This document shows positions 10,527 through 20,911 of a stretch of 64,000 nucleotides of DNA, one piece after another. How positions within the stretch are numbered: position 1 is the stretch's first letter; the number at the start of each line of letters is the position of its first letter. The notes under the pieces are model-generated. The model was not told where the DNA came from. It worked only from the letters and a program-made list of their open reading frames with translations, and made no database searches. Source of the DNA: Verrucomicrobiota bacterium (GTDB lineage: Bacteria; Verrucomicrobiota; Verrucomicrobiia; Verrucomicrobiales; DEV007); assembly GCA_045046875.1 (NCBI GenBank), contig JASFYY010000037.1, forward strand, positions 64,001-128,000, written 5' to 3'. The translations under genes were made by a program, and so were the position numbers.

Positions 10527-11591
10527 ATGATCACAGAAGAAAGCGTAAAAGAAAAACTCGGACAGGTGAACTATCCAGGATTCAGCCGGGACATTGTCTC
10601 CTTCGGCCTGGTGAAAAGCATCTCGGTCAACGGCGAAGACGTCACCGTCAAAATCGCCATCGCCACCCGCGACCCGAAAATCCCTGCCGACATATATAAA
10701 GCCACCCGTGAAGCGCTCGACGCCATCGAAGGCATCGGCCAGGTGGACGTTGACATCGACATTCAAGAACCCACGCAAAACGCTGCAGCTGCAGGCGCTG
10801 CCGGTGGCCAAGTGGACAAACAAGGCATCCCGGGAATCAAACACGTCATCGCCGTCGCCAGCGGCAAAGGCGGAGTGGGCAAATCCACCGTCGCCTCCAA
10901 TCTTGCTATTGCCCTGCACAAAAGCGGAGCCAAAGTCGGCCTCTGTGACTGCGACCTCTACGGTCCCAGCATGCCCACCATGTTCGGCTCTAACGAACAA
11001 CCAATGGCCACCCACGATAACCGCATCATCCCCATCGAAGCCCACGGACTCAAGATCATCTCGATGGGATTCCTACTGCAAGATGATTCTCCAGTCATCG
11101 TCCGTGGTCCACTGGCGACCAAATACACCCAACAATTTCTCCGCCAGGTGGAATGGGGTGAACTGGATTATCTCATTCTCGACCTGCCTCCCGGCACCGG
11201 CGACATCCAACTCACCATCGTGCAGACCGTCGCCCTCGATGGCGCCCTCATCGTTACCACACCGCAGGAAGTGGCGCTCATCGATGCCCGTAAAGGCACC
11301 GCCATGTTTGCCAAAGTCAACGTGCCGATTCTGGGTATGATCGAAAACATGAGCTGGTTCGACTGCCCCAGTGACGGCGAACGTTATTACATCTTTGGTC
11401 AGGACGGCGGCAAAAAAGAAGCCGAACGTCTCGGCGTGCCGCTGATCGGCCAGATCCCGATCAACATCGAAACCCGCGAGTGTGGTGACCAGGGACAACC
11501 CATCGCCCTGCTGCCACCCGAACGCAACACCGTCAGCGCCGCCTTCAGCGAAATCGCCAATCAAATTCGCGCAAAAGTCGAAGTCGGCTAA
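10527..11591 (+). CDS. mrp: Mrp/ApbC/NBP35 Fe-S cluster carrier ATPase
   Basis: N-terminal FeS-assembly (DUF59-like) domain, SGKGGVGKST, DLPPGTGD, ENMSWFDC. Confidence 0.95.
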   Translation: MITEESVKEKLGQVNYPGFSRDIVSFGLVKSISVNGEDVTVKIAIATRDPKIPADIYKATREALDAIEGIGQVDVDIDIQEPTQNAAAAGAAGGQVDKQGIPGIKHVIAVASGKGGVGKSTVASNLAIALHKSGAKVGLCDCDLYGPSMPTMFGSNEQPMATHDNRIIPIEAHGLKIISMGFLLQDDSPVIVRGPLATKYTQQFLRQVEWGELDYLILDLPPGTGDIQLTIVQTVALDGALIVTTPQEVALIDARKGTAMFAKVNVPILGMIENMSWFDCPSDGERYYIFGQDGGKKEAERLGVPLIGQIPINIETRECGDQGQPIALLPPERNTVSAAFSEIANQIRAKVEVG

Positions 11592-11609: not shown

Positions 11610-11986
11610 CCCCTCCCTCCTCAGCGTGGCATGGATTGGCAATCCGTGTTCTCCCATACCTCCCCCCAACCCACCACGCAATACCATTGCGTCCCACTTT
11701 CACCTCCCCCCTCCCTCCTCAGCGTAGCATGGATTGGCAATCCGTGTTCTCCCATACCTCCCCCCAACCCACGCAATACCATTGCGTCCCACTTTCACCT
11801 CCCCCCTCCCTCCTCAGCGTAGCATGGATTGGCAATCCGTGTTCTCCCATACCTCCCCCCAATCCACGCAATACCATTGCGTCCCACTTTCACCTCCCCC
11901 CTCCCTCCTCAGCGTAGCATGGATTGGCAATCCGTGTTCTTCCATACCTCCCCCCAATCCACGCAATACCATTGCGTCCCACTTTC
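11610..11986. repeat. Tandem array of 4 near-identical ~95-bp units, each with two inverted REP-like hairpins (BIME-like)
   Basis: GT(A/G)G-CATGGATTGGCAATCCGTG starts at 11626, 11724, 11819 and 11914 (periods 98, 95, 95); each unit also has ACGCAATACCATTGCGT-CCCAC (GTGG plus hairpin on the minus strand). Confidence 0.9.
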
Positions 11987-12064
11987 CCTACCCCTGCCTT
12001 CCCATGCTATTTTGCAAGACAAGCTTTCATGTTGCCTCATGCCTTATTTTTTTCACATACATGC

Positions 12065-12090
12065 GCAACCTTTTGCAAAACCCGTGGTTC
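12065..12090 (+). promoter_or_regulatory. Putative ECF-sigma promoter
   Basis: GCAACC-N16-GTTC upstream of the EF-hand gene; similar element at 44758. Confidence 0.4.
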
Positions 12091-12146
12091 AAGCCTCTAC
12101 AGCATCACTACAGAAAGTGATCTCAATCTTAAACCCCAGTTAAAAC

Positions 12147-12572
12147 ATGAAAAACAAATGGATCACCGCAGCGATCGCTGCCAGCACAATCACACTCATC
12201 GGCACCAGCAATCTCCTCGCCGAAAAAAAGGGTGACGGCAAAGGCAAGCCCAAGCATGCAGAAATGCGCAAAAAAATGCTCGAAAAATTCGATGCCGACG
12301 GCGACGGCAAACTCAATGAAGCCGAACGAGCCAAAGCCAAAGCAACCATGCAAAAAAGAGGCGCCGAGAAATTCGCCAAAGCAGACAAAAACGGCGACGG
12401 CAAACTCAGCAAAGACGAAGTGCCCGCCGAAGCTTGGGCCCGCATGTCCAAAGCCGACAAAGACGGCGACGGAGCCGTAAGCAAAGAAGAAATGAAAGCC
12501 GCTCACACTGCCCGTCACGGTAAAGGGGCAGCTAAAAAAACAGGCAAAGGCAAAAAGCCCGCTGATTCCTAA
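12147..12572 (+). CDS. Secreted EF-hand Ca-binding protein
   Basis: Signal peptide; DADGDGKLNEAE, DKNGDGKLSKDE, DKDGDGAVSKEE loops. Confidence 0.9.
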   Translation: MKNKWITAAIAASTITLIGTSNLLAEKKGDGKGKPKHAEMRKKMLEKFDADGDGKLNEAERAKAKATMQKRGAEKFAKADKNGDGKLSKDEVPAEAWARMSKADKDGDGAVSKEEMKAAHTARHGKGAAKKTGKGKKPADS

Positions 12573-12599
12573 AACACGCTCCCAACTAAGCCCTCTCAA

Positions 12600-12643
12600 G
12601 ACTCCGCTCTGCGCCTGGTAAAAGGCGCGGTCGGAGTTCTTTT
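12600..12643 (+). terminator. Rho-independent terminator after EF-hand gene
   Basis: GACTCCG..GCGCCT / AGGCGC..CGGAGTT stem followed by CTTTT. Confidence 0.6.
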
Positions 12644-12867
12644 GTATAAAGTATTTCTCAGACAGTAATCTCGATTGCCATACAGAAAGTGCCCAGCTAT
12701 TGGCTACCGCAGAGCGCTGCAACAAATCTATTTCGTTACCACGCCATTCCCGCCATCAACACTGACTTGAAAAAGCTGAAATTCTTCGCCCTTACAATAA
12801 CTACACGAAAATTTGAATAGAAAAATAGAATTGATCTTACCGTAAATTCAGTTAATCTCTGGCTTTC

Positions 12868-15009
12868 ATGAGACTGCTGGCGTTGACCATATTTTTAGGA
12901 GCTTTTTTGATTTTTCAAGTAGAGCCCCTCATCGCCAACTACATATTACCTTGGTTTGGTGGCAGTTCAGAAGTCTGGACGGCTTGCATGCTCTTTTTTC
13001 AATCTGCCTTATTCACTGGCTATGCTTACGCGCATTTCATTGCCGGGCATTTCAAACTGAAAAACCAAGTCATAATTCATTCGGCAGTATTACTGTTTAG
13101 TGTTTTATGGCTACCTATCACCCCTCCAGAGGCACTGAGGCCTGATACGGTAGCGGCTCCTGTTTTGTTAGTGCTGTTAGTTTTAACGGTTAGTGTGGGA
13201 TGGCCATTTTTTGTCATTTCATCAACGACCCCGCTGTTGCAAAGCTGGCTCACCAAAGCTTATCCCAAACATTCTCCCTACCGTCTATATGCCTTATCTA
13301 ACGCCGGTTCGCTATTGAGCCTGATTGCCTACCCGTTCGTTGTGGAGCCTTGGTTAAGCCTACCTGATCAAACCCAGGTTTGGTCTATAGCTTATCTCGG
13401 ATTTGTTATATTCAGTATATTCACCGGGGCAAAAGTTTGGAGAAACGCGCAAAATACAATCCCCTCCTCTGTTACGGCTATGGGATCACCCAAGTCAAGA
13501 CAAGTTGCCACACCTATAGATTCATCTGAAAGCATAAAATTTAACATCATATTATGGCTAGCAATGAGCGCCTGTGGATCAGTCATGCTGTTGGCTGTCA
13601 CTAATCAGTTGTGCCAAATTGTGGCATCCGTCCCTTTCCTCTGGGTCTTACCATTAGGCATATACCTACTGAGCTTTATTTTTGCATTTGCTGCCGACAG
13701 TTGGTACCGTCGTGAAGTATTTGGCTTGCTTTGGATAGTTGCGTTAGGTTTCGGGTTTTGGCTTGATCTCGGAGCCTTTACTATAGAAGGAGTTAAGCCG
13801 CAAATTGCAGTATATTGCTTTATTTTGTTTGTTTGCTGCATGGTTTGTCATGGTGAATTAGCGCACCTGCGCCCCAATGCTAAAAAACTAACATTATATT
13901 ATCTCGTCATTTCACTAGGCGGATTTCTAGGAGGGGTATCGGTTGCTTTGGTGGCTCCTGCAATTTTTACGTTTTTCTACGAATTTTATTTCGGCCTTAT
14001 TGGCAGCGGAGTCATTTTATTGGTAATGTTAAGAAGAGATCACTGGAAAAAGCTCAGTAAGCCTAAATTAAGGATAAGCGTTCTTAAAACATGCCTGCTT
14101 ATTCTAGTGATGATTTTATTAGTGGGCGGAGCCTCAGCGGTTAAGGAACGCAATAGTTTTCAAACGAAGGAAACTATTGCCGTACATCGCGATTTTTATG
14201 GAATCGTAAAAGTTCAAAGAGAGCAGGGCTATAAAAAAAATGATACCGTGATCTCATTTGTGAACGGCAATACGGTTCACGGTTTTCAATTTGAAAGCGA
14301 ATCGAAAAGGACGATCCCAGTTTGTTATTATGAGCGATCTTCTGGCATAGGGTTAGCCGTTGATTTTCACTCCAAGCGGATAAAAAACGAACCTTTGAAA
14401 GTCGGACTAATCGGGTTAGGAGTCGGAACTCTAGCCGCTTATGCCAATAAAGGAGATGAGTTTTTATTTTATGAAATAAACCCTAGTGTAGAAGTGATTG
14501 CTCGACAGTATTTCACCTATTTAAACGATGCAGAAGCGCGCGGCGCACAAATAGAGATTAAATTGGGAGATGCACGCCTGTCTCTGGAACGAAGTTTGAA
14601 AGTTGATAAACCTATAAAATTTGACCTTCTAGTGCTCGATGCTTTCAATAGTGATTCTGTACCGGTGCACCTCTTAACTCTGGAAGCTTTTGATTTGTAT
14701 AGAAAACACCTCCAAAAAAACGGAATAATCGCCATCCACGTTTCCAATCGTTATTTAGATTTAACCTCAGTGGTGAGATCTTCTTTATCTAAGAGCCCTC
14801 TTGAAGTCATTCAAATTGTCAGTTCATCGACCAACTTAGCCCTATTGCCTGAAAATACGACCATAGACAGCGATTGGATTCTAGCCACCGGTGATCCGGA
14901 GTTTCTCAAGCGTCCTGAAATAAAAAACGCAACGAGCTCCTGGCCTAAAAATGCCAAAATGATTCGTTGGACAGATCATTTCAGTAGTTTGTTTCATGTG
15001 CTGAAATAG
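12868..15009 (+). CDS. Fused multi-TM membrane / spermidine-synthase-like SAM-binding protein
   Basis: About 12 TM segments (LPWFGG, PYRLYALSNAGSL, CHGEL) then IGLGVGTLAAY, YEINP, GDARLSL, DAFNSDSVPVHLLT, WTDHFSSL. Confidence 0.9.
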   Translation: MRLLALTIFLGAFLIFQVEPLIANYILPWFGGSSEVWTACMLFFQSALFTGYAYAHFIAGHFKLKNQVIIHSAVLLFSVLWLPITPPEALRPDTVAAPVLLVLLVLTVSVGWPFFVISSTTPLLQSWLTKAYPKHSPYRLYALSNAGSLLSLIAYPFVVEPWLSLPDQTQVWSIAYLGFVIFSIFTGAKVWRNAQNTIPSSVTAMGSPKSRQVATPIDSSESIKFNIILWLAMSACGSVMLLAVTNQLCQIVASVPFLWVLPLGIYLLSFIFAFAADSWYRREVFGLLWIVALGFGFWLDLGAFTIEGVKPQIAVYCFILFVCCMVCHGELAHLRPNAKKLTLYYLVISLGGFLGGVSVALVAPAIFTFFYEFYFGLIGSGVILLVMLRRDHWKKLSKPKLRISVLKTCLLILVMILLVGGASAVKERNSFQTKETIAVHRDFYGIVKVQREQGYKKNDTVISFVNGNTVHGFQFESESKRTIPVCYYERSSGIGLAVDFHSKRIKNEPLKVGLIGLGVGTLAAYANKGDEFLFYEINPSVEVIARQYFTYLNDAEARGAQIEIKLGDARLSLERSLKVDKPIKFDLLVLDAFNSDSVPVHLLTLEAFDLYRKHLQKNGIIAIHVSNRYLDLTSVVRSSLSKSPLEVIQIVSSSTNLALLPENTTIDSDWILATGDPEFLKRPEIKNATSSWPKNAKMIRWTDHFSSLFHVLK

Positions 15010-15514
15010 CTAGCACTTATATAAAAATTCTTAATTCATCTTAACCCGCAACGTTCTTAGCCGCAAAGAACTCCCAAACCATATTGAGAAATAGTTTTAC
15101 CCCTAGAGAGCAAAAATACTCGAATTCGTAATCCGAAAAACCCTCAAACTCGTCAGCAAATGTATCACCCATGACAACAAGCGTAAGCGTCTTATATTCC
15201 GCCCCTCCGTGCCGGTGTCCAAATCGGGCGAGATGACTTCAGTCCAGTGTTCGGAAAGCAGTTATGAACTCAGCAGCCAAAGGAATGGCTGCCTGATGCT
15301 CAATCAATACACTCAAACCTTCACTGTAGAAAATAACCAGGCGTGGGTGCGGTGAGGCGACAAAGCTCACATCCGGCCCCGTGGTTTTGACACGCGGCAC
15401 CGCTGAGGTTCCGAATAAGAAATAGGCTTTACTACTGGGCAGCTGAGATTGGTGTCCCGCGCAGGGCAACTCCAAATATCGTAGACACGGTTTGATAAAC
15501 CATGTTGCTACTAC

Positions 15515-15907
15515 TTATTGATCGAATCTGACCACAGACGAATCCTCCCGGGCTTCAACCACCTTTTTAAAAGATTGCGATTCATGGGCTCGTTGCTCTG
15601 CTATTAATAGATCCACTACCATCCCATAGCTGCGGATACCCGCGGGTTGTCGCTGCACTTTGAGGTAGGTATCGTTTACTTTCCTATTTACCTGCCTTAC
15701 GATCCTTTTAGTTGATGTAGTTTTTTTCCACCAAAACGATGAGATAAATCTAATATCTCGATTAATTCCAGGATCAATACTTGAGCCCAGCTCTCTATAA
15801 CAATCTATGTCTGCCCTGGCTAGAGCAGGCAAGGCGTAGGTTAGCATTCTCAATACACCCGAATATTGAAAATCAATGTCTGGGTGACTCTTACAAGCCA
15901 GAAAACC
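15515..15907 (-). pseudogene. 5'-truncated remnant of a DUF3810-like gene
   Basis: GFLACKSHPDIDFQYSG...NDTYLKVQRQPAGIRSYGMVVDLLIA matches the recalled DUF3810 C-terminus; similarity stops abruptly 6 bp before the TIR gene ATG. Confidence 0.65.
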
Positions 15908-15913
15908 TGAACC

Positions 15914-16759
15914 ATGCTTGAAAAGATCGCAGTTATATCCTATCGACGTGAAGACAGTGTGGACGTGACTGGCCGTATCTACGACCGTTTGATCGTAGCC
16001 TTCGGAAAAAAGGCCATCTTCAAGGATATGGAATGCATTCCGTTGGGGGTTCATTTTGCGGAACACATTTCCTCGACCATCGAAAAATGTCATGTGGTGC
16101 TTGCCGTCATCGGAAAGCAGTGGTGGGGACGTGACGAAACCAATGGTCAGCGCCGCATTGATGAAACTGAAGATTTTGTGCGGCTTGAGATTGAAGAGGC
16201 ATTCAAACATAAAATCCCGGTGATCCCCCTACTGATCAAAGGCAGTAACATGCCCGAAGAAAACGAGCTTCCTAAAAGCCTGAAACGGCTGGCCTTTTGC
16301 AATGGGATCCCAGTGAGGTCCGACCCAGATTTCCATCGGGACGTGGACACCTTGATTGCGGGTCTTGAGCGGCTGGGTTTCCAAAGGCAGGATACGAACC
16401 CAGCGGCCAATTTAGTCAACCTGCCAACCGAGATATCAGCCAATCTACACACGGGCACCGGGAGCATCCCCATATTACAAGTTCCCTTCACCATAGGACG
16501 CCATGTCTGTAATTCACTAACCCTGCCCAACAACAATGTCAGCAAGCGCCATGCGCGCATCACCCTCGCTAATAAACGCTTTTACCTGGAAGACCTCGGC
16601 AGCACCAATGGGGTTTATATCATCCAGGAGCAGGAAGCTATCAAACTACGCACAGATGAGCAATTCCCCCTGAACTTCAGAACCTGTATCCGCTTGGGGA
16701 AAAATGATACCGCCCCGCTGCTGACGTTCGAGCTAGAAGAACAGACTATTATTGAGTGA
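15914..16759 (+). CDS. TIR domain + FHA domain protein
   Basis: ISYRREDS..GRIYDRL...FKD..IPLG..F...VLAVIG..W...DFVRLEIEEA (TIR_2); FTIGRH...VSKRHARI...LEDLGSTNG (FHA). Confidence 0.9.
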   Translation: MLEKIAVISYRREDSVDVTGRIYDRLIVAFGKKAIFKDMECIPLGVHFAEHISSTIEKCHVVLAVIGKQWWGRDETNGQRRIDETEDFVRLEIEEAFKHKIPVIPLLIKGSNMPEENELPKSLKRLAFCNGIPVRSDPDFHRDVDTLIAGLERLGFQRQDTNPAANLVNLPTEISANLHTGTGSIPILQVPFTIGRHVCNSLTLPNNNVSKRHARITLANKRFYLEDLGSTNGVYIIQEQEAIKLRTDEQFPLNFRTCIRLGKNDTAPLLTFELEEQTIIE

Positions 16760-16854
16760 TACCTCGAACCTCAATAATAGTTCGCATTTGACTCAACGTG
16801 GCGACCGGTTCGCGAATCATTTTTTGCTGAAGCGAACTTTGAAAGTAATGCTCT

Positions 16855-16938
16855 AATGGGCTCAGAATGGGCTCAGTCGGAAAATTTGGAGTTAATGTGT
16901 AAAACTCCAAATTCCCATAAGTCGTTGATTATAAAAAG
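16855..16938. mobile_element. Attachment-site-like remnant next to the tRNA-Leu 3' end
   Basis: Tandem direct repeat AATGGGCTCAG x2 (16855-16876), inverted repeat AATTTGGAGTT/AACTCCAAATT (16883-16913) and TAAGTCGTTGATTAT abutting the tRNA; no integrase seen. Confidence 0.5.
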
Positions 16939-17023
16939 TGCCGACGGCGGGAATCGAACCCGCACTCCCAAAATGAGAAGCAGATTTTAAGTCTGCTGCG
17001 TCTACCAATTCCGCCACATCGGC
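16939..17023 (-). tRNA. tRNA-Leu (anticodon TAA), CCA not encoded
   Basis: Reverse complement GCCGATGTGGCGGAATTGGTAGACGCAGCAGACTTAAAATCTGC...GGGTTCGATTCCCGCCGTCGGCA; long variable arm, TTCGA T-loop. Confidence 0.97.
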
Positions 17024-17047: not shown

Positions 17048-19288
17048 TCAAGCCTTCCCGCCACTCTTTTTCTTTTCCAATTTTAATCCCGCGACTTTTT
17101 GCGTGATTCCCCTCAAAGCCCTCATCACTTCCAGCGGCCCTGCTGGCAGGGACAGGTCCACATCAATCCGGGTTCCAGGCGCATAGGCCAGCAGGGATTC
17201 TTTCAAAGCCTCCCTGACCGCCGCCGCCATAGCCACCGGGGCTTCGGCACAAGAAATCGACGATCGCTGCCGCTCTCCCCCACTCTCCACACCGTCAGCC
17301 TTCACACCATCCAAATCCATCAAGTCAATGCGGAAATCCAACGGAGCCTGCGCGAGTCCGGGCACCGCGCAGGGACGAGTATTCACTTGCTCGCTGAGCA
17401 CCCAAGCCTGTCCCATCATATAAGCCCTGGCGATTTGTGCGCGATTCAAATCAGCCCCCTTGTCACCTTTACCTGCCTGGTTTTGTGCAAACAGGTCCGC
17501 TCTTAATACCTGCACCTCTCCGGTGAAGGCATCCAGTTCCACCTCGACCACCGCAGCTCCGTAAAAATACCCAGTGAAAGGTCTGCCACAAAACTTTTTG
17601 CCGTTCCATTTTTTTGCCTCAGCAGAACCCCTATTCCGATAAAACCCAAACGCCGTCAGCTTTTCTCCCTGCTGACTCGCCTGGCTCACCTGAGAGGCAA
17701 ATTCAGATCTCCCGGAACCGCTGTGTTGCTTTAATCGTCTGGCTATTTTTTTGCAGGCTTTTTTCACCGCTCCAGCCACCAAAACCTCCGTATCGATTGC
17801 AAAAACCGGCATCGACACTCCCCCACCCAATTGCCCCTGATCCTCACCCGAGACCTCGATAAACTTTCCGTCCAATTGAAAAAATTCACTCACCTGAACC
17901 CTCACTCGCTCCAACAGGCCGTCGCCCACATCCACCCGGGCGATCCTCACCTGCACACTTCCATCCTGATAAACCTGCAAAAAAGCCGAAGCCTGGTTGA
18001 GCCTGCCCTGCGAATCGCCCACCCCCATCTTAACCGGCACCACCGCAATGCCGCGTTTGCAGGCGCGGTGTTTCCGATTCCATCCGACCAGCGCCTCCTT
18101 GCGCGAATGCCAATCGGATGCCGACAGTGCCGCAATCCACAATCGGCTCAAACGCTCGGCGTCGATCTTCTGGCCATAGGCCGTGAGAGCCGACTGCTTG
18201 CCCGCACGGTAAAAATTAAGCTCCCGCACCGTATCGGCGCTTTTACCCAAGCGCCGTGCCACTCGAGCGATGATCTCTTCCATCACAAAAATCCCCTGCG
18301 CCGAACCTTCGGCCCAAATAGAACTGCCCGTGATCCCACTGGTTCGACACAACTTGCCATTCACCCGAAAATCAGCAATGCCGTAAGCTCCATCGGCATT
18401 CAACATCGCCCGCTCCAGCGCCTGCTCACCCGCTCCACTCAGCGCGCCCGCATCCATCACCAGATCAATATTCAAAGCCAGAATCACCCCATCCGCATCG
18501 CAACTCGCCTGGAATTCCGCTTCCACCGCATGACGCTTGCCGGTCAGCGCGAGCTCCTGCTGCAAGTCCAGCTCCAAGCTCACCGCACGTCCCGATTTCA
18601 TCGCCGCCACCGCAGCCAGATTGGCCACCCGCACACTCTCATCTCCACGTCCACCCGACAAACCCAATACCGGCATCGCCTGCACCGTCACCCGGCTTTC
18701 AGCAATCCCCAACACACTCGCCACCGACGACTGAACCCGTGAAGGCTGCTCGCACGGCACCTTCACTGTGATCCCCCGCCTGCCATCCAATGCTTCAAGC
18801 GGCTCTGCCTGAGCGACCAGTATACCCCCGCTCAACGGATATTGACTAGCAATAGACAATTGACCTTCCACTAAAATGTCTCCCCCTTGCAAAGCTCCAT
18901 CCACATCCCCTTGTGATAGCGTAATGGTTTCGCCCAACAAGTTCCGCACCGCCTTGGCATGAGCTACATCCAACACTCCTGGTGCGCTGTGGTAGTCGAT
19001 CTCGATTTTTCCCAACGCTTGCTCGCAAGCGGCCCGGGACCTTCCAAGCACCAAAGCCACCGGCTGACCAACATACTCGACTTTATCACCAGCGAGCAGT
19101 TCTGAGCGATTTTCATTTTTAAAATCTTCGGCAAAATACACCGCCTCCACCCCATCCACCTCCAAGGCCGTTTGCTGCTTTTTGCCAACAATCGACGCTG
19201 ACGCATGCGGCGAAGTCAGCAGCACCGCTTCGAGCCATTCATCATTCCCCCTATTTCCATTCAACCCTTTCATCATCTCAATCTGCAT
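17048..19288 (-). CDS. Divergent xanthine dehydrogenase molybdopterin-subunit (XdhB)-like protein with degenerate cofactor motifs
   Basis: SPHASASI, VEYVGQPVALV, LTGKRH, KRGIAVVPVKMGV, YFYGAAVVEVELDAFTGEVQVLRAD retained; GGGFGGKE, AFRGFG, EMGQGL and QIEGG absent. Confidence 0.85.
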   Translation of the reverse strand: MQIEMMKGLNGNRGNDEWLEAVLLTSPHASASIVGKKQQTALEVDGVEAVYFAEDFKNENRSELLAGDKVEYVGQPVALVLGRSRAACEQALGKIEIDYHSAPGVLDVAHAKAVRNLLGETITLSQGDVDGALQGGDILVEGQLSIASQYPLSGGILVAQAEPLEALDGRRGITVKVPCEQPSRVQSSVASVLGIAESRVTVQAMPVLGLSGGRGDESVRVANLAAVAAMKSGRAVSLELDLQQELALTGKRHAVEAEFQASCDADGVILALNIDLVMDAGALSGAGEQALERAMLNADGAYGIADFRVNGKLCRTSGITGSSIWAEGSAQGIFVMEEIIARVARRLGKSADTVRELNFYRAGKQSALTAYGQKIDAERLSRLWIAALSASDWHSRKEALVGWNRKHRACKRGIAVVPVKMGVGDSQGRLNQASAFLQVYQDGSVQVRIARVDVGDGLLERVRVQVSEFFQLDGKFIEVSGEDQGQLGGGVSMPVFAIDTEVLVAGAVKKACKKIARRLKQHSGSGRSEFASQVSQASQQGEKLTAFGFYRNRGSAEAKKWNGKKFCGRPFTGYFYGAAVVEVELDAFTGEVQVLRADLFAQNQAGKGDKGADLNRAQIARAYMMGQAWVLSEQVNTRPCAVPGLAQAPLDFRIDLMDLDGVKADGVESGGERQRSSISCAEAPVAMAAAVREALKESLLAYAPGTRIDVDLSLPAGPLEVMRALRGITQKVAGLKLEKKKSGGKA

Positions 19289-20768
19289 CGATCGGCTTAA
19301 AAAAACCTTCCCCGTCCTCAGCTAAGTCCCGCCTCACCTCAGCCCCAGCCTTGTCTGCCTTGCGTTTTTGCAAACTCGCATATTGATGCTGAAACTTCTG
19401 TAACAAAGTACTCACCCATAAACGCCGGCCATCTTTCTCATCGAGCTTACCCAGCAACGCAATCTCCTCATCCAAGTTCTTGAGCACCGCGATCACCGCA
19501 TGCTGATCCCAAACTTTTCCTTTTAAAGCCGCCGCCGTTTTCACCGCCAACACCGGCTGCTCGATCAATCCCCCATAGGCTAAAATCGCCCGCTGCACCT
19601 TTTTCTCCTCGTCCAGCTCAAGCGCAAAAGCGGCACTGATCAAAGCAGGACAACCCGTCGACCGCAGGGATACCTTATAAGCTTCACAGACGCGCTGTTC
19701 GCAATCCTTCACCCGCAACATCTCCGCAGTATCGCGCGGCACACTCACACTCTTGATAATTTCATTATGCCGCAGCGCCCCCTCTTCATGGCGGGCAAAA
19801 AAGCTCTGCACCGTCAAGTCACGTGCACCCCCTTCCGATGCCAAACGCACCCGCGCCTCCAAGGTCAACAAAACCGGCCCTAACTCGGCACGTCCCGAAC
19901 TTGTATTCAACTGACCTCCCAAAGTCATCCGGTTGCGCAGCGGACCCAGCGCATAACGTTGCAAAGTTTTCCCCAACTCAGGGTATTCATCACCGAGCAC
20001 TTCCACGATTTCGGTCAAAGGCACCGCAGAACCAATTTGCCAGTGACTGCCCTCGTCCACCACCGCCCGCAATTCCCCAATACTCTCAACTGACAAACGC
20101 ACCGTAGCTGGCTCTCTGGCTGCCGTGATTCCTCCTGCTATCACCTTCACTTTTGCCGTCTGATTTTTGAGTTCAAATAAATCAACAATCGTCAGCGGGC
20201 GATAAAAGCGGTTTTTATCGACATCCACATACTTCACCGCATCCCCCGCCTCCACTCTATCCTCACCAAGCCGCGCGGCGCCATAGCTCTCCATCGGCAG
20301 TAAAACCTCGATCACCTTTTTCACCGCCGCGTAATCCGCCGTGCGGGAAATAAAATCATCCGGCAAAGTCACCTTTTTTTGCCCGGCAGTAAGCGCACAC
20401 CACTCGAACAACAAAAGCAGCAGATTGTCCCGCCTCAGCGGATGGCTATCAAGCCCCGGATAGCCCTTTTCAACAGCCCACAAGGGATGTTCGGAAAAAT
20501 GACTCTGCAAACCTTTGCGTGTCCATATCTGCTTACCCACCATCGTCACCAGTGGTACCTGCACAGCGTCAATCGTGCGCAGAACCGGTCGCCGGTCACG
20601 ATCCACATCCAACATCAGCACCAATGCTCCGCCCTGCTCACTATCCGCCCGGGTCAACACATCAACCTGTCCGCAGGCCTTCAGTCCATCCAATAAAGAC
20701 GTATGCACACTGACGTCCTCATGACGCCATGATGCTCCATTCAACTCTATTGTGAACCAACTCTGCAT
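19278..20768 (-). CDS. Divergent XdhA-like (Fe-S/FAD subunit) protein lacking the [2Fe-2S] cysteines
   Basis: IELNG..SVHTSLLDGL, FYRPLTI, VIAGG, LRNRMTLGGQL, YKVS, AYGG retained; start set at ATG 20768 (MQSWFTIELNG). Confidence 0.8.
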   Translation of the reverse strand: MQSWFTIELNGASWRHEDVSVHTSLLDGLKACGQVDVLTRADSEQGGALVLMLDVDRDRRPVLRTIDAVQVPLVTMVGKQIWTRKGLQSHFSEHPLWAVEKGYPGLDSHPLRRDNLLLLLFEWCALTAGQKKVTLPDDFISRTADYAAVKKVIEVLLPMESYGAARLGEDRVEAGDAVKYVDVDKNRFYRPLTIVDLFELKNQTAKVKVIAGGITAAREPATVRLSVESIGELRAVVDEGSHWQIGSAVPLTEIVEVLGDEYPELGKTLQRYALGPLRNRMTLGGQLNTSSGRAELGPVLLTLEARVRLASEGGARDLTVQSFFARHEEGALRHNEIIKSVSVPRDTAEMLRVKDCEQRVCEAYKVSLRSTGCPALISAAFALELDEEKKVQRAILAYGGLIEQPVLAVKTAAALKGKVWDQHAVIAVLKNLDEEIALLGKLDEKDGRRLWVSTLLQKFQHQYASLQKRKADKAGAEVRRDLAEDGEGFFKPIDAD

Positions 20769-20911
20769 ACCCTCAAAAAGTCTGCGCAGGCTATACTGTA
20801 GCGAAGCTCTAGTCAATCCATCATCCCTCTGCCTCCTCTACCAAGTGCTCCCGCAATTTTGGAAATTCCCAGTTTCCAAATTGAAACTATTGAGCCAACT
20901 TAGCCAGTAAC

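Follow-up and report, generated by a model that had tools for sequence, protein, structure and literature searches.

A selected XdhAB-like pair without iron-sulfur and molybdenum-cofactor ligands in one family of Verrucomicrobiales

The xanthine dehydrogenase (XDH) of Rhodobacter capsulatus consists of two subunits, XdhA and XdhB. In XDH, the purine is bound and activated by Glu232, Arg310, Glu730, Phe344 and Phe459 (PMC3311054), and sulfurated molybdenum cofactor (Moco) is inserted into XdhB by XdhC (PMC13653126). Here, we report a pair of genes whose products, called A and B, resemble XdhA and XdhB but have lost the ligands of the iron-sulfur and molybdenum centres. The pair lies in 64,000 nucleotides from a Verrucomicrobiota bacterium of the order Verrucomicrobiales (contig JASFYY010000037.1, positions 64,001 to 128,000; the whole of this stretch is called the window). 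A preliminary description, made from the sequence alone, had singled it out as an intact complex without its cofactor motifs.

We observed that both open reading frames (ORFs) are uninterrupted, with 496 and 746 amino acids, no internal stops and an overlap of 11 bp (window positions 19278-19288), exactly as first described. According to the preliminary description, none of the eight [2Fe-2S] cysteines is left in A. An alignment of 217 rows places R40, Q45, A48, V69, S108, L111, S141 and T143 at the ligand positions of A (i.e. 0/8 cysteines). A move of the ligands to shifted positions was considered and rejected, since residues 1-170 have just C32 and C124, and the claim stands. In the Pfam domain search, A matched FAD_binding_5 and CO_deh_flav_C and gave no match to Fer2 or Fer2_2, while B matched Ald_Xan_dh_C, MoCoBD_1 and MoCoBD_2. 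The best NCBIfam models were xdhA (TIGR02963) for A, at 149 bits against a cut-off of 467, and xdhB (TIGR02965) for B, at 323 bits against a cut-off of 849.5, so that both scores fall below the family thresholds.

The molybdopterin loops of B (GGGFGGK, FRGFG, GQG, SATAAS and QIEGG), together with Gln197, are near-invariant in 53 canonical sequences, and are replaced in this copy and in 75 sequences of its core clade (described below). For Gln197, Phe228, Arg342 and the Gln of GQG, the replacement extends over the 75 core sequences in all but one cell of the comparison, and Gly343 is also replaced relative to R. capsulatus. The motif pairings drawn earlier for B were all borne out by alignment. 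One detail needs correction: KAVGEPP does pair with ISCAEAP, but its Glu is not lost, as E682 is in register with E730 of R. capsulatus. With the molybdopterin loops and all iron-sulfur cysteines gone, the pair cannot be a xanthine dehydrogenase, as the reported losses had implied.

The substrate pocket was compared between the 75 core B sequences and the 53 canonical ones. The preliminary description had pictured the replaced substrate loops as an erased pocket. Instead, the pocket appears rewired: the catalytic Glu730 and the substrate-binding Arg310 are kept, and both purine-stacking phenylalanines have become acids (Table 1), a new acidic pocket that had been missed. At the Glu232 position, 58/75 core B sequences have Glu and this copy has Gly (G215), and the Thr460 position of XdhB is S426 in this copy. 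Only 6/695 B columns are newly near-invariant in the core clade (E197, E327, A330, G424, D425 and R621). Four of these six are at or beside the stacking-Phe positions (E327 and D425, with their neighbours A330 and G424; hypergeometric p 0.001, post hoc), and R621 sits at the predicted A/B interface. E327 was found in 7/7 core lineages and D425 in 6/7; among non-core carriers the pocket positions vary. Judged by these alignments, the B pocket is a case of changed chemistry at one site and not of erosion, and is specific to the core clade.

For subunit A, a core set of 59 sequences was chosen by the presence of at most two ligand cysteines, with 13 truncated or non-core rows excluded, and the A tree supports this set independently. 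The two pyrophosphate loops for flavin adenine dinucleotide (FAD) are retained in core A (G212 in 58/59; R278, N279 and G285 in 59/59 each). At other FAD-site positions, N286 is kept in 4/59, D295 in 9/59 and K365 in 23/59, and position 373 no longer has its Asp. In bovine xanthine oxidoreductase (XOR), these four positions are contacts of the flavin ring or of nicotinamide adenine dinucleotide (NAD). The A of this genome also has a 10-residue deletion behind the first FAD loop, and in one relative (G030) the A has lost that loop. Newly invariant in core A are the N-terminal residues 1-4, the linker 180-187 and the last helix 454-463, which may provide packing to hold the cluster-free domains. 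A flavin role for A is weakly suggested by the retained loops.

We estimated selection from the ratio of non-synonymous to synonymous substitution rates (dN/dS). Against the nearest relative (G005), this was 0.16 for A (Fisher p 1e-15) and 0.22 for B (p 1e-23), and no stops are present where about 33 would be expected under neutrality. The median was 0.14 for A (83 pairs) and 0.16 for B (100 pairs), with a range of 0.04-0.31 over all 183; these are 83/117 A pairs and 100/126 B pairs, saturated pairs having been dropped. Intact XDH pairs gave similar values (0.06-0.25), and six neighbouring genes gave 0.01-0.15, somewhat below A and B of this genome. The sole apparent frameshift falls at a run of N (a scaffold gap), and the other short frames checked stop at contig ends. 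Purifying dN/dS, retention in 74/95 genomes of the family and descent along the species tree together uphold the earlier argument for selection and against decay. The A/B pair is almost certainly a selected pair of proteins other than XDH. As far as sequence comparison can tell, its catalytic machinery is lost while the fold stays under purifying selection, as in a pseudoenzyme or a neofunctionalised homologue.

By structure prediction, A and B retain the full XdhA and XdhB folds. The AlphaFold2 model of A (predicted local distance difference test, pLDDT, 85) matched R. capsulatus XdhA (1jro_A) with Z 35.7 over 426 residues, and that of B (pLDDT 83) matched XdhB (2w55_B) with Z 49.7 over 694 residues. 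The complex predicted for A(1-172) and B(16-741), with manganese as an unscored addition, reached 0.89 (best control 0.00), and its runs shared at least 91% of contacts, with a partner pLDDT of at least 83. The mark applied to complexes is reached by 116/157 solved pairs and 2/215 mismatched pairs; the pass of A/B may stem from memorisation by the predictor, a similar complex being solved. Residues 346-464 of A resemble the C-terminal domain of LplA (4tvw_A, Z 8.4) and LplB (3r07_C, Z 7.0). In the ESM Atlas, the top feature neighbours of B were Spirochaetota clusters of ~697 aa with partial Pfam coverage (score 0.96). An unnamed 151-aa cluster was a feature neighbour of the cysteine-less part of A (score 0.81; a lead only).

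The distribution of the pair was surveyed in 95 genomes of one Verrucomicrobiales family, each at least 85% complete. The A profile matched 80/95 genomes, and the split pair was counted, as a single copy, in 74 genomes from 15/24 genera; this count excludes six genomes that matched via fused proteins or small subunits of other molybdenum (Mo) hydroxylases. Most of the 74 carriers were read residue by residue, and the rest were assigned by score, frame length and a nearly always adjacent B at 143-531 bits (against the xdhB cut-off). The pair is present in 61/64 genomes of the core genera versus 13/31 of the other genera. A scan of 185,579 genomes, with patterns tuned to the core clade, found 54 loci, 48 of the split cofactor-less kind and 6 from other phyla with intact motifs. 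By their titles, 46 of the 48 are from Verrucomicrobiota, one from Chloroflexota and one from an uncultured bacterium. In a class-wide draw of 350 genomes, 51 matched, and the best 29 loci all had intact motifs in the stretches covered. Within the limits of these scans, the split cofactor-less form seems confined to one family. The contig titled Chloroflexota (L098:2-1786) is probably misbinned, as it encodes a B of the core type that groups within the g1 sequences and is followed by that same tRNA-Leu gene.

In the B tree, 47 sequences formed one core clade with a Shimodaira-Hasegawa-like approximate likelihood ratio (SH-aLRT) of 99, and the core with nine other split forms stood apart from the intact enzymes at a weaker support of 88. 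The A tree separated all split forms and two unplaced proteins from 33 canonical-type proteins (support 100). The same core genera formed one clade (support 100) in a RpoB+RpoC tree of 41/95 genomes and five outgroups, although the outgroups of this tree did not form a single clade and its root is uncertain. By these trees, the pair is vertically inherited and tracks the species tree. The A of four relatives (G020, G024, G031 and G107) keeps eight cysteines and that of a fifth (G025) keeps seven by alignment, and the B of all five is without the Mo loops and Glu730. Because these Cys-keeping relatives have a B already without the Mo loops, the Mo site was lost before the cysteines. According to the A tree, the cysteines were lost at least twice, and once more within genus g27.

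Other arrangements were also seen. The fused XDHs of 1230-1350 aa from other Verrucomicrobiae are among the highest-scoring intact relatives. Three genomes (G028, G115 and G121; L058:7271-11035, L213 and L214) encode a fused Mo hydroxylase of 1255-1285 aa that has eight Cys and the catalytic Glu and is without Arg310 and Glu232, an aldehyde-oxidase-like pattern. In G019 (L039:7789-8547), a 253-aa ORF without a Pfam match lies between A and B. In genus g7 (L202, L203, L193 and L196), A is beside a LipM-like gene and a shortened B (629-660 aa) is on another contig.

When we examined the surroundings of the pair (Table 1), no conserved operon partner was found; across genera only a LipM-like gene and tRNA-Leu recur. 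The tRNA-Leu(TAA) gene is not thought to be a functional part, but an ancestral neighbour. The short LplA/LipM-like gene is directly upstream on the same strand in 39/74 carriers from seven genera. It occurs in 86/95 family genomes, including genera without the pair, and was not seen beside 41 fused or intact loci (with flanks of only 1.5 kb in 29). In this genome it is unlinked to the pair and is the only such transferase; LipA is present. Its product has a conserved Cys, and LipM enzymes have a catalytic Cys. The locus of G004 is flanked by both the LipM-like gene and tRNA-Leu, which suggests an ancestral locus, and the linkage of the LipM-like gene is probably old synteny. No Lip_prot_lig_C domain was found in this genome or as a Pfam match in A, and a lipoyl-domain pattern, too narrow to inform, had no match in this genome.

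Upstream of A is a divergent 226-aa gene of the Ala_racemase_N family (YggS-like). The promoter pattern of A was present in 18/54 upstream regions (shuffles: mean 4.5, maximum 12), the pattern having been picked after the sequences had been viewed; a consensus promoter scan found no site upstream of A and did not list this candidate. In two runs from one study (of a type not known), contigs of close relatives span the locus with mostly in-frame or compensating differences, and are uninformative on expression. Beyond the tRNA-Leu(TAA), window positions 12001-16800 have lower GC (0.43-0.45), a TIR_2 + FHA protein (15914-16759) and a DUF3810 fragment. The gene content of this region varies among congeners (with a SNF2 helicase in G003), and the tRNA-Leu(TAA) may therefore be an integration site. 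Further on, a 95-bp unit is repeated four times in tandem, 97% alike (11610-11994), between a Mrp/NUBPL-family gene (10527-11591) and an EF-hand gene (12147-12572).

Table 1. Features of the A/B locus, in window positions (residue numbers of R. capsulatus XdhB where so stated)
Feature	Position	Strand	Remarks
XdhA-like gene A	19278..20768	-	496 aa from ATG (window 20768-19278)
Domains of A			two cysteine-less ferredoxin-fold domains (about 1-165), FAD-binding-fold (187-345), CO_deh_flav_C (362-460)
Former [2Fe-2S] domains of A	20274..20768	-	0/8 ligand Cys; predicted folded, predicted docking on B
XdhB-like gene B	17048..19288	-	746 aa
Domains of B			a/b hammerhead and both Moco-binding-fold domains; molybdopterin loops replaced
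Arg293 of B	18410..18412	-	substrate-binding Arg310 retained; Arg in 65/75 core
Glu327 of B	18308..18310	-	at purine-stacking Phe344 (R. capsulatus XdhB); Glu in 75/75 core
Asp425 of B	18014..18016	-	at purine-stacking Phe459; Asp in 73/75 core
Glu682 of B	17243..17245	-	catalytic base Glu730 retained; Glu in 73/75 core
Sigma-70-like promoter candidate of A	20788..20816	-	-35, 17-bp spacer, -10 ending 19 bp before ATG
tRNA-Leu(TAA)	16938..17023	-	directly downstream of B; neighbour in 9/56 loci

We also looked for paralogues and for the Moco and purine pathways. No other family member was found in this genome (94.7% complete) with tblastn, TIGR02965 and Fer2_2 searches, and the XdhC_C search of the same genome found no XdhC. 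There is also no OHCU (2-oxo-4-hydroxy-4-carboxy-5-ureidoimidazoline) decarboxylase and no HIU (5-hydroxyisourate) hydrolase in this genome, and its amidohydrolase match falls below the guanine deaminase cut-off. OHCU decarboxylase occurs in 2/95 family genomes. Among the 74 carriers, 67 have no second Mo subunit (xdhB-type match); XdhC is present in 4, an intact-motif xdhB in 4 (G021, G078, G079 and G123) and another Mo hydroxylase in 3. In G021, an intact fused XDH (L052:3773-7462) is near the end of a short contig, and XdhC was not found in this 90% complete genome. A loss of Moco synthesis as the cause was rejected, since the genome under study has moaA and three enzymes of the Mo-bis(pyranopterin guanine dinucleotide) (Mo-bisPGD) family besides NuoG.

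The explanation that we prefer, with a probability of roughly 0.52, is that A and B form a non-redox complex in which the carboxylate pocket of B binds a divalent metal or a cationic ligand, as a binder or as a new catalyst. In such a complex, A and B would still have the shape of XdhAB, and new residues (Arg621 and Asp456 of B; 136-150 of A) would close the interface where the pterin and the cluster sat. The working part would be the old substrate pocket of B, its aromatic purine sandwich turned into a carboxylate cluster (Glu327, Asp425, Glu682 and often the Glu232 equivalent). The most likely ligands of this cluster would be a divalent metal, a cationic small molecule or side chain of a protein, or both, and its part could be that of a binder or regulator or that of a catalyst without redox chemistry (hydrolytic or acid-base). 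Subunit A would be mainly a structural partner, perhaps still gripping a nucleotide by its pyrophosphate loops. A bolder and tentative proposal is that the pair is the first non-redox enzyme on the xanthine oxidase fold, in which Glu730 and the two new carboxylates would form a site for metal-dependent hydrolysis or acid-base catalysis; it would have become a core function in one large clade, possibly acting with the LipM-like transferase on an acylated or lipoylated carrier-protein lysine.

Several points weigh against the carboxylate-pocket explanation. That E327, D425 and E682 lie close together is deduced from alignment to the solved enzyme. The acids, being buried, might serve as structural plugs that pair with R293 or R252, although E327 persists where R293 is Gln or Leu (10/75 core sequences). 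The non-core carriers (13/74 genomes) do not share the acid set, and as their frames stay open, the pocket cannot alone account for retention. A single genus dominates the set of 75 core sequences, and related copies do not count as independent. In addition, A and B are unlinked in genus g7.

A pure scaffold or adaptor, with the XdhAB shape kept for an unknown partner and the acids merely filling the empty cofactor and substrate cavities, is a possible but doubtful alternative. Many of the new A invariants (the N-terminus, linker and last helix given above) are outside any former active site, R621, A617 and G644 of B are at the predicted A/B interface, and long-branch lineages without the acid set retain both frames, all of which a scaffold would accommodate. 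For mammalian XOR, an inactive form free of Mo has been credited with a structural function in milk droplets (PMC13653126). However, the new B invariants gather at the substrate pocket, nearly every core sequence retains the catalytic Glu while the surrounding cofactor residues drift, and the pair shares no operon with a conserved partner gene. A residual flavoprotein of the diaphorase or oxidase type, in which A transfers electrons through bound FAD and B is passive, would suit the early eight-Cys forms and the kept pyrophosphate-loop residues; in Cys-keeping relatives such as G024, Fer2, Fer2_2 and the K/R/D residues of the last domain do persist. It is nevertheless improbable, as the presumed ring and NAD contacts are mostly lost in core A, the first loop is followed by a deletion here and is missing in G030, and the selection on 746 residues of B would be left unexplained. 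We regard as still more improbable a lipoylation helper, in which A, through its C-terminal domain, would play the part of LplB (LplA-C) towards the upstream LplA/LipM-like protein. The linkage in about half of the carriers, which in g7 persists for A although B lies elsewhere, its apparent absence beside fused or intact loci, the LplA and LplB fold matches of A and the lack of a Lip_prot_lig_C domain in this genome speak for it. But the LipM-like gene is near universal and is unlinked here, its conserved Cys and the presence of LipA fit the pattern of a LipM octanoyltransferase (PMC3904984), the fold match is of moderate strength and presumably a trait of every XdhA, and A has its own promoter-like site, while the tRNA neighbour indicates that plain synteny can last as long.

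The roles offered by the preliminary description fared less well than its account of the losses. A scaffold or regulator of an active Xdh paralogue fails because the paralogue, XdhC and a second Mo subunit are missing in most carriers. The related possibility of a regulatory or assembly partner of an active xanthine dehydrogenase can draw on the four carriers with an intact-motif xdhB, and is very improbable in view of the same absences, in this genome and in 67/74 carriers; for most carriers it is already refuted, provided that their assemblies do not miss the gene systematically. A purine sensor is unlikely as stated, since both stacking phenylalanines are now acids and OHCU decarboxylase is so rare in the family. 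That the pair is a pseudogene decaying before its first frameshift is likewise very improbable. Some non-core lineages do have very long branches and a shortened B (572-660 aa), the pair is missing in 21/95 genomes, and its dN/dS in this genome is above that of the six neighbouring genes. Against this, dN/dS stays low in all 183 unsaturated pairs, as in intact XDH pairs, and the apparent frameshift and the short frames checked are accounted for by the run of N and by contig ends. For the core clade, decay is refuted by these sequence comparisons.

Together, these results describe a metalloenzyme pair of ~1240 residues that has lost three of the four redox centres but persists in 95% of genomes in one clade, and hence the pair must serve another important job. 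The sequence of losses can be read from living intermediates, and the pair thus offers a testable example of how an enzyme scaffold takes on a different job. Source databases label A and B as subunits of xanthine dehydrogenase or as molybdopterin oxidoreductases, and purine catabolism is therefore probably predicted too often in these uncultured Verrucomicrobiales. No description of the A/B family was found in the literature searched, most subscription papers and supplements being outside that search, and the pair is apparently a real, selected and undescribed variant. It has lost the defining features of XDH, yet it is a structural descendant of XDH.

With R. capsulatus XdhAB (PDB 1jro, 2w3r, 2w55; TIGR02963/TIGR02965), the pair shares the gene order, the two-subunit split, the full folds, the predicted A/B interface, Glu730 and Arg310. 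Unlike XdhAB, it has none of the eight Fe-S cysteines, Gln197, Phe228, Arg342 and Gly343 and the GQG, SATAAS and QIEGG loops are replaced, Phe344 has become Glu and Phe459 Asp, there is no XdhC, and the scores are far below the family cut-offs. The C-terminal domain of NuoG in complex I is a cofactor-less Mo-bisPGD fold, i.e. a molybdoenzyme fold kept without Mo; unlike A/B, NuoG belongs to a different fold family and retains Fe-S clusters, and its host complex is known. The fused XDHs of other Verrucomicrobiae differ from A/B in being one polypeptide with all motifs intact in the covered stretches (29/29 loci), and those examined in the order adjoin XdhC or purine-catabolism-type genes. The pair is also like the demolybdo and desulfo forms of mammalian XOR in milk, where the XOR fold is thought to be useful without Mo chemistry (PMC13653126). 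Milk XOR is, however, an intact gene product left unloaded, whereas A/B has lost its ligands, those of the Fe-S clusters included, in the sequence itself.

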